Assembly: GCF_017348835.2 (NCBI RefSeq)
Contig: NZ_CP071375.1
Source: Escherichia coli
GTDB lineage: Bacteria > Pseudomonadota > Gammaproteobacteria > Enterobacterales > Enterobacteriaceae
DNA length: 64,000 bases
Reading direction: 5' to 3' (one strand)
A program made the translations under genes and the position numbers. Positions 4,925 through 6,939 of this stretch are shown here, one piece after another. The first letter of the stretch is position 1, and each line of letters opens with the position of its first letter. Under the pieces are notes generated by a model that did not search any database, was not told where the DNA came from, and worked only from the letters and a program-made list of their open reading frames with translations.

Positions 4925-6939
4925 TTGATGGCTATGTCAGACGAGGCGATGTTTGCCCCGCCGCAAGGAATAACAATTGAAGCGGTAAACGGAATGCTCG
5001 CGGAGCGGTTAGCACAGAAACACAGCAAGGCGTCTTTATTACGCGCCTTCATCCCGCTGCCGCCGCCGTTCAGCCCGGTACAACTTATTGAGCTGCATGT
5101 TCTCAAAAGCAACTTCTATTACCGCTACCATGATGATGGCAGCGATGTGACGGCAACAACAGAGTATCAGGGCGAGATGGTCGATGATTCGCGCCACGCC
5201 GTCCTTCTCGGCAGTAGTGGAATGGCGGAGCTACGCTTTATTCGTACCCACGGCAGCCGTTTTACTCCCCAGGATTGCACACTGTTTAACTGGCTGGCGC
5301 GGATAATCACCCCGGTTCTGCAATCATGGCTCAATGATGAAGAACAGCAGGTGGCGCTGCGTTTGCTGGAGAAAGATCGCGATCATCATCGGGTACTGGT
5401 TGATATTACTAATGCAGTGCTGTCACATCTTGATCTCGACGATCTGATCGCTGACGTCGCCCGTGAGATCCATCATTTTTTCGGTCTGGCTTCAGTCAGT
5501 ATGGTACTGGGAGATCATCGAAAGAACGATAAGTTCAGCCTGTGGTGCAGCGATCTTTCTGCCTCACATTGTGCGTGTCTGCCACGCAATATGCCTGGCG
5601 ACAGTGTATTGCTGACACAAACGCTACAAACCCGACAACCGACCTTGACGCACCGTGCAGACGATCTGTTTCTCTGGCAACGCGACCCGTTATTACACTT
5701 ACTTGCATCTAACGGCTGCGAATCTGCGCTCCTGATACCGCTTACCTTTGGCAACCATACACCGGGTGCATTGTTGCTGGCGCATACCTCTTCCACTCTC
5801 TTTAGTGAGGAAAACTGCCAGCTACTACAACACATAGCCGATCGCATCGCTATTGCCGTTGGCAATGCCGATGCCTGGCGTAGCATGACCGATTTGCAGG
5901 AAAGTTTGCAGCAAGAAAACCACCAGCTTAGCGAGCAGCTCCTTTCGAATCTGGGCGTCGGTGACATTATCTATCAAAGCCAGGCAATGGAAGACCTGCT
6001 CCAGCAGGTAGATATTGTGGCGAAGAGCGACAGTACGGTGTTGATTTGTGGTGAAACCGGAACCGGCAAAGAGGTGATCGCCAGAGCGATCCATCAACTT
6101 AGCCCGCGACGCGACAAGCCGCTGGTCAAAATCAACTGCGCTGCCATCCCCGCCAGTCTTCTGGAAAGTGAGTTATTCGGTCATGACAAAGGGGCGTTTA
6201 CTGGTGCGATTAATACCCATCGTGGTCGTTTTGAAATTGCCGATGGCGGCACGTTGTTTCTCGATGAAATTGGCGATCTGCCGTTAGAACTTCAGCCTAA
6301 ATTGCTGCGCGTATTGCAGGAGCGGGAAATTGAGCGTCTCGGCGGGAGTAGAACGATCCCGGTGAATGTCAGAGTCATTGCCGCCACCAACCGTGATTTG
6401 TGGCAAATGGTTGAAGATCGCCAGTTTCGCAGCGATCTCTTTTATCGCCTGAATGTCTTCCCACTGGAATTGCCGCCGCTACGCGACCGTCCGGAAGATA
6501 TCCCTCTTTTAGCAAAACATTTCACGCAAAAAATGGCGCGCCATATGAATCGCGCAATTGACGCCATCCCGACCGAGGCACTACGCCAGTTGATGTCGTG
6601 GGATTGGCCGGGCAACGTGCGCGAGCTGGAAAACGTGATTGAGCGGGCGGTACTGTTGACTCGTGGTAACAGTCTGAATTTACATCTAAATGTCCGACAA
6701 AGCCGTTTACTGCCGACGCTAAATGAAGATTCAGCGCTTCGCAGTTCAATGGCGCAGTTGCTGCACCCGACGACGCCAGAGAATGACGAAGAAGAACGTC
6801 AGCGCATTGTTCAGGTATTGCGAGAAACCAATGGCATTGTTGCGGGCCCCGTGGCGCGGCGACACGATTAGGGATGAAGCGCACCACGCTGCTGTCACGA
6901 ATGCAGCGTCTGGGGATCTCGGTTCGCGAGGTGTTGTAA
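4925..6939 (+). pseudogene. hyfR: Sigma54-dependent activator HyfR with an apparent -1 frameshift; the intact frame stops at 6871 and the C-terminal Fis-type HTH is out of frame
   Basis: The ORF has a sigma54 AAA+ core (GETGTGKE, GAFTGA-like motifs) and ends ...IVAGPVARRHD* at 6871. The +1-shifted frame immediately reads RGAATRLGMKRTTLLSRMQRLGISVREVL* to 6939, a typical FhlA-type HTH. The junction is a CCCC run at 6847-6850. Confidence 0.6.

Follow-up and report, generated by a model that had tools for sequence, protein, structure and literature searches.

The hyfR locus and its reading frames

The question raised by this locus is whether HyfR, the sigma-54-dependent activator of the hyf (hydrogenase-4) operon, is still made in a DNA-binding form, because the reading frame of hyfR in the 64,000-nt stretch of Escherichia coli DNA analysed here (the window) closes ahead of the sequence for the C-terminal helix-turn-helix (HTH). 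The favoured reading, to which a probability of roughly 0.9 is given, is that a genuine, inherited one-base deletion of hyfR is carried by a lineage of E. coli found in pigs, leaving an HTH-less product of 647 aa, so that little or no HyfR-dependent activation of hyf is to be expected; the expectation about activation is drawn from the domains of the protein.

On synteny and sequence, hyfR of the window is the orthologue of K-12 hyfR (b2491, NP_416986.4), which occupies the same locus in the order hyfJ-hyfR-focB-yfgO. Upstream, on the + strand, hyfF (partial), hyfG, hyfH, hyfI and hyfJ (1..4898) are all annotated intact, as is focB downstream (6961..7809, + strand), and the gene order hyfJ-hyfR-focB at the 3' end of the hyf operon is that of K-12 according to the PGAP annotation. 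The full extent of hyfR is 4928..6939 (+ strand), which is 2012 nt versus 2013 nt in K-12. The open frame that is left in it (4928..6871, + strand) encodes 647 aa that comprise a GAF domain, a sigma-54-interaction AAA+ domain and an AAA lid without an HTH; 641 of these residues are native and the last six (VARRHD) are foreign. As the sequence-only reading had described, the TAG at 6869-6871 closes the frame that opens with ATG at 4928 (or TTG at 4925), giving ...IVAGPVARRHD*, and helices 2-3 of a Fis-type HTH are found out of frame at 6850..6939 (+ strand) as RGAATRLGMKRTTLLSRMQRLGISVREVL*, read one base back from the zero frame of hyfR. The product that starts at ATG 4928 is present in the protein collection; the products that would start at TTG 4925 and ATG 4934 are absent from it.

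The distance from the stop codon of hyfR to focB is 90 nt in the window and was 22 nt before the lesion; a polarity effect of the 68 nt of additional untranslated RNA ahead of focB is unlikely. An ATG at 6874, 3 nt past the premature TAG, opens the HTH frame to 6939, and the resulting 21-aa peptide MKRTTLLSRMQRLGISVREVL, the recognition helix alone, could conceivably be made by termination-reinitiation but is probably meaningless.

A single C is missing from codon 639

Six hyfR alleles (the window, K-12 b2491, F2_81, Res13-Sevr-PER07-33, PS10-3 and strain 48) were aligned with MAFFT. Over 2013 aligned columns, hyfR of the window differs from K-12 b2491 by 25 SNPs and a single 1-nt gap, located at gene position 1916, that turns GTTGCCGGG into GTTGCGGG. 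The site of the deletion (6842..6844, + strand) reads G-C-G in the window and G-CC-G in K-12 and other strains of the alignment; codon 639 (GCC, Ala) is short of one C, and the C that survives is at 6843. Where K-12 has ATT GTT GCC GGG CCC CGT GGC, the window has ATT GTT GCG GGC CCC GTG GCG, and the allele with the deletion contains GTTGCGGGCCCC. The frame shifts past Pro641, the first residue to be changed is 642 (R to V), and the stop follows six codons on. Compared with intact orthologues, hyfR of the window thus has an indel that is not a multiple of three and a premature stop, which makes it a frameshift pseudogene.

The sequence-only reading had proposed a 1-nt frameshift that removes the Fis-type HTH, located in the CCCC run at 6847..6850 (+ strand). 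The deletion and the loss of the HTH are borne out, but the location is not: the run is the same as in K-12, and the lost C belongs to the doublet at 6843. The deletion was misplaced because a C added to the doublet and a C added to the CCCC run yield the identical 670-aa protein, the two repairs differing synonymously at 6844 and 6847. The length of 670 aa that the sequence-only reading gave for the intact protein matches both K-12 HyfR and the one-base repair, and the repaired protein differs from K-12 HyfR at eight residues, all upstream of the lesion. Slippage or error in a homopolymeric C-run was considered as the source of the frameshift and rejected, since four Cs are found at 6847-6850 in K-12 and four other strains, among them Res13, PS10-3 and strain 48. 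The idea of a homopolymer error is further weakened because the mutated site is a CC doublet and not a homopolymer of four to five bases.

Consequence for the HyfR protein

Searches against Pfam placed the same domains at the same residues in K-12 HyfR and in the product of the window: GAF at 169-311 (PF01590, E = 5.3e-13 in the 647-aa product), Sigma54_activat at 347-513 (PF00158, E = 7.8e-75 in the 647-aa product) and the AAA lid at 519-585, with the GAFTGA loop present in the translation. The proteins differ at the C-terminus: HTH_8 was found at residues 621-661 of the 670-aa K-12 HyfR (E = 8.6e-4), whereas the Pfam search of the 647-aa product returned no match to HTH_8, and no in-frame C-terminal HTH is encoded. 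The product retains helix 1 of the HTH_8 region (ERQRIVQVLRETNG) and lacks the helix-turn-helix proper. The allele retains 96% of the HyfR protein.

The paralogue FhlA, encoded at a separate locus, is 51% identical to HyfR over 566 aa and has a longer N-terminal region that is absent from HyfR, the alignment beginning at FhlA residue 137. The C-terminal HTH is near-identical in the two proteins (GAAQRLGLKRTTLLSRMKRLGI in FhlA and GAATRLGMKRTTLLSRMQRLGI in HyfR), and the name "FhlA-type" that the sequence-only reading gave to the lost segment is therefore justified. The best NCBIfam match of HyfR is the FhlA model, at a score under its cut-off.

From this domain architecture, binding of the HTH-less HyfR to its enhancer should be lost. 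The mechanism proposed is that one C of the codon 639 doublet was lost from an otherwise intact hyfR allele in a lineage of E. coli found in pigs, and that the shift of frame past Pro641 and the stop that follows it would leave the GAF sensor and the sigma-54 AAA+ core in place while removing helices 2-3 of the HTH. Such a protein would be unable to bind an upstream activating sequence, so that the enhancer-dependent activation that HyfR provides at the sigma-54 promoter of hyf is predicted to be lost or greatly reduced. The structural genes of hyf, a promoter-like element and FhlA would remain, and residual expression of hyf would depend on FhlA. This looks like regulator-first decay at an early stage, in a hyf system whose function in E. 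coli is poor to begin with.

Loss of the HTH does not silence every sigma-54 activator: HTH-less variants of, for example, PspF and NtrC can activate from solution when their concentration is high. The truncated HyfR might likewise remain active, either by activating sigma-54 promoters from solution or by forming mixed oligomers with FhlA that would alter the regulation of FHL-1 or of hyf in either direction, in which case the allele would represent a change of function and not a null. This is improbable, although it fares better than the other alternatives. Both the GAF domain and the AAA+ domain, the latter with its GAFTGA loop, are intact; FhlA and HyfR are much closer in the AAA+ core than they are overall; and the allele persists in a lineage known from China and from Australia, and more than 20 other assemblies have it too. 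However, clonal hitch-hiking of a neutral loss explains this spread equally well, and hyfR is reportedly poorly expressed in K-12, which would make activation from solution unlikely.

FhlA and the state of the hyf system

The chromosome of strain PE164, which is identical to the window in this region (see below), provides the annotation against which the rest of the hydrogenase-4 system was judged. The genes hyfA-J and focB are annotated intact in it, and so are FhlA (692 aa; record positions 1048042-1050120, which are 28042-30120 of the extracted stretch L014), the hyc operon and hypA-E; hypF starts at the edge of the stretch examined. FhlA is labelled "FlhA" by PGAP and by NCBIfam NF011958, and is thereby confusable with the flagellar export protein FlhA. 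Outside the window, 57 nt upstream of the hyfA ATG (extracted stretch L010, 8343-8594), is a sigma-54-like element, TGGCAT-N5-TATGCA. A perfect inverted repeat, CGACACGGGTGTCG, is found further upstream in the same interval and is possibly an activator binding site.

The sequence-only reading had held that the hyf operon could not be activated. For HyfR acting at its enhancer site this holds; as a statement about the operon it is overstated, because FhlA is annotated intact, its recognition helix is near-identical to that of HyfR, and Skibinski et al. 2002 (as cited in PMC7384014) has a title in which regulation of hyf is ascribed to FhlA as well as HyfR. In this lineage hyf may still be open to activation by FhlA. 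The title of Self et al. 2004, as cited in the literature (PMC7384014, PMC7654741), calls hyf a silent operon, and in K-12 the placing of the hyc promoter or a T5 promoter at the hyf locus gave neither hydrogenase-4 activity nor hydrogen production by hydrogenase-4 (Finney et al. 2020, PMC7654741). The phenotypic cost of losing hyfR in E. coli may be small.

Distribution of the truncated allele

The window's first 25 kb are 100% identical to the minus strand of the PE164 chromosome (NZ_CP114128.1), with a stretch of 6.3 kb that is base-for-base identical; PE164 was isolated in Nanjing from a pig with diarrhoea. RefSeq/PGAP tags LZG51_RS06205, the hyfR of PE164 with the sequence found in the window, as "frameshifted". 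The hyfR region is carried by approximately 4290 complete genomes, and a 63-base query across the lesion was matched without a gap in two genomes only, PE164 and F2_81, among the 2830 with a match. F2_81, from an Australian pig and sequenced by another group, has a hyfR identical to that of the window and differs from the window over the flanking 20 kb by three mismatches and no gaps; F2_81 and PE164 are of one lineage.

The exact 647-aa protein was found on at least 24 contigs in Logan, ENA and NCBI assemblies, mostly of 20-200 kb. The truncated allele was checked at the nucleotide level in two of these carrier contigs, the evidence in each case being an assembly: the contig from ERR3970200 matches the window base for base along 7944 nt, while the contig from SRR21743672 has the same deletion plus two SNPs elsewhere. 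The exact repaired 670-aa protein is found on 58 contigs, in sources that name it HyfR, and an intact form of the allele therefore still circulates. Intact close relatives were also sought among the 99.7% matches of the 63-base query, and these were set aside because the likeness is local, the whole genes being 26-36 SNPs apart; the nearest intact hyfR among complete genomes is 99.2% identical.

These distributions bear on the possibility, raised by the sequence-only reading, that the deletion is an artefact of sequencing or assembly; on that view both Cs of the doublet would be present in the true genome and hyfR would be intact. A single-base indel is the typical error of long reads, and the "frameshifted" flag of PGAP is blind to the difference between an error and a mutation. 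An error limited to one assembly is rejected by F2_81 and because public runs, assembled independently, yielded at least 24 contigs with the truncated product. Within the approximately 125 kb of the PE164 annotation that were examined, hyfR is the only gene flagged as "frameshifted", and the PE164 assembly is therefore not full of indel errors. With the same deletion present in a complete genome from another laboratory and country, and at a doublet where there is no homopolymer, the proposal of an error is discarded as very improbable; judged from independent assemblies, the lesion is in the organism.

Possible rescue by a -1 frameshift

The deletion created, in the zero frame at 6844-6850 (GCG GGC CCC GTG), the heptamer G_GGC_CCC, which is formally of the type X_XXZ_ZZN. 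A slip of -1 on this heptamer would produce ...AGPRGAATRLG..., which is exactly the wild-type HyfR sequence, and the overlap between the stops of the two frames, from 6784 (HTH frame) to 6869 (zero frame), includes the heptamer. It was therefore considered that translation partly corrects the frameshift, such that a little full-length HyfR, in an amount that might vary with conditions, would be made in the lineage together with an HTH-less form that could titrate FhlA or mix with it. Given a stimulator, C_CC.C tetramers show a weak tendency to shift in E. coli (PMC4066793), and the heptamer is in the correct frame. However, the 80 nt after the motif (6851-6930) fold no better than shuffled sequences (z = +1.24), so that no downstream stimulatory structure was found in this segment; in the same systematic survey of E. 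coli (PMC4066793), G_GG.C_CC.A failed to reach the threshold even when the IS3 pseudoknot was supplied, related G_GG.C_CC.N motifs scored poorly, and constructs with a motif alone yielded between roughly background and a few tenths of a percent. The heptamer arose incidentally from a recent mutation and lacks conservation, the two-frame arrangement being confined to two complete genomes while nearly all sampled hyfR genes have the normal length (see below). Programmed frameshifting was accordingly judged very unlikely, and a mixture of the two products in the cell is hardly to be expected; if true, it would make hyfR of this lineage an accidental two-product regulator instead of a dead gene.

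Other lesions of hyfR in E. coli

Approximately 1130 of the 5426 complete genomes (about a fifth) have no hyfR. Where the gene is present it is mostly of constant length: 58 of 60 evenly spaced matches are exactly 2013 nt, with no net change. A rough dN/dS of ~0.17 between the repaired allele and K-12 points to past purifying selection on hyfR, and since the gene is usually under such selection, its loss here is possibly not neutral.

Other lesions of hyfR inactivate the same regulator while the structural genes of hyf remain, but the mutations, their positions and the lineages differ. Strain Res13-Sevr-PER07-33, also from a pig, has an independent deletion of 11 nt at gene positions 760-770, flagged by PGAP as "frameshifted"; strain 200088 has an IS1 inserted in hyfR; and in NZ_LR883000.1 the gene is reduced to a remnant of 87 nt. 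Inactivation of hyfR is thus sporadically recurrent, and the allele of the window is one more lineage-restricted loss. No relevant literature was found on hyfR pseudogenes in E. coli.

Neighbouring loci in PE164 and F2_81

Several other loci differ between the two complete genomes of the lineage or are degraded in PE164. The gene pdeF, for a cyclic-di-GMP phosphodiesterase (window 19722-21965, - strand), contains an internal stop in PE164, where it is annotated as a pseudogene, and is broken by an IS3-family element in F2_81; it looks like a gene inactivated twice independently within one lineage. An IS3-family element (window 22547-23857, with the transposase coding sequence at 22602-23815, + strand) directly adjoins yfgG in PE164, whereas in F2_81 the corresponding copy is separated from yfgG by approximately 9 kb that encode HigA, an ABC-three-component system, a DUF2326 protein, a RecQ-family helicase, DprA, yfgI and yfgH. 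This suggests that PE164 lost yfgH and yfgI along with a candidate defence island through an IS3-mediated deletion. The IS is multicopy in PE164, where a query of 25 kb matched 32 places.

The same IS3 element bounds an integrated mobile-element remnant (window 24046-32952) that adjoins guaA and contains genes for a tyrosine integrase, a LuxR-family regulator, a RepA-family helicase, traJ, trbJ and trbL; the window ceases to match most other E. coli genomes at approximately 23858. At the type I-E CRISPR-Cas locus of PE164 (record positions 1022184-1029871; 2184-9871 of L014), an IS3 copy lies immediately beside cas3, casB is shortened and the genes between casB and cas2e are missing, so that the locus looks degraded.

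Significance of the hyfR lesion

The deletion in hyfR is real and confined to a lineage; it makes an ordinary loss-of-function allele with little novelty, the gene being already marked as "frameshifted" in RefSeq for both complete genomes. What is added to the sequence-only reading is correction: the deletion is placed at its exact site, a sequencing error is rejected and the inactivity of hyf is qualified with respect to FhlA. The importance of the finding is small beyond strain-level annotation. It describes a pig-associated lineage, sampled in China and Australia, in which the activator of hydrogenase-4 is without its DNA-binding domain and the structural genes are all kept, and it is a further example of the sporadic, regulator-first erosion of hyf, a system that is wholly missing from about a fifth of complete E. 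coli genomes and whose enzyme stayed inactive in K-12 even under strong promoters. Natural alleles of hyfR such as this one could be used as free controls for the roles of HyfR versus FhlA in driving hyf in wild strains.
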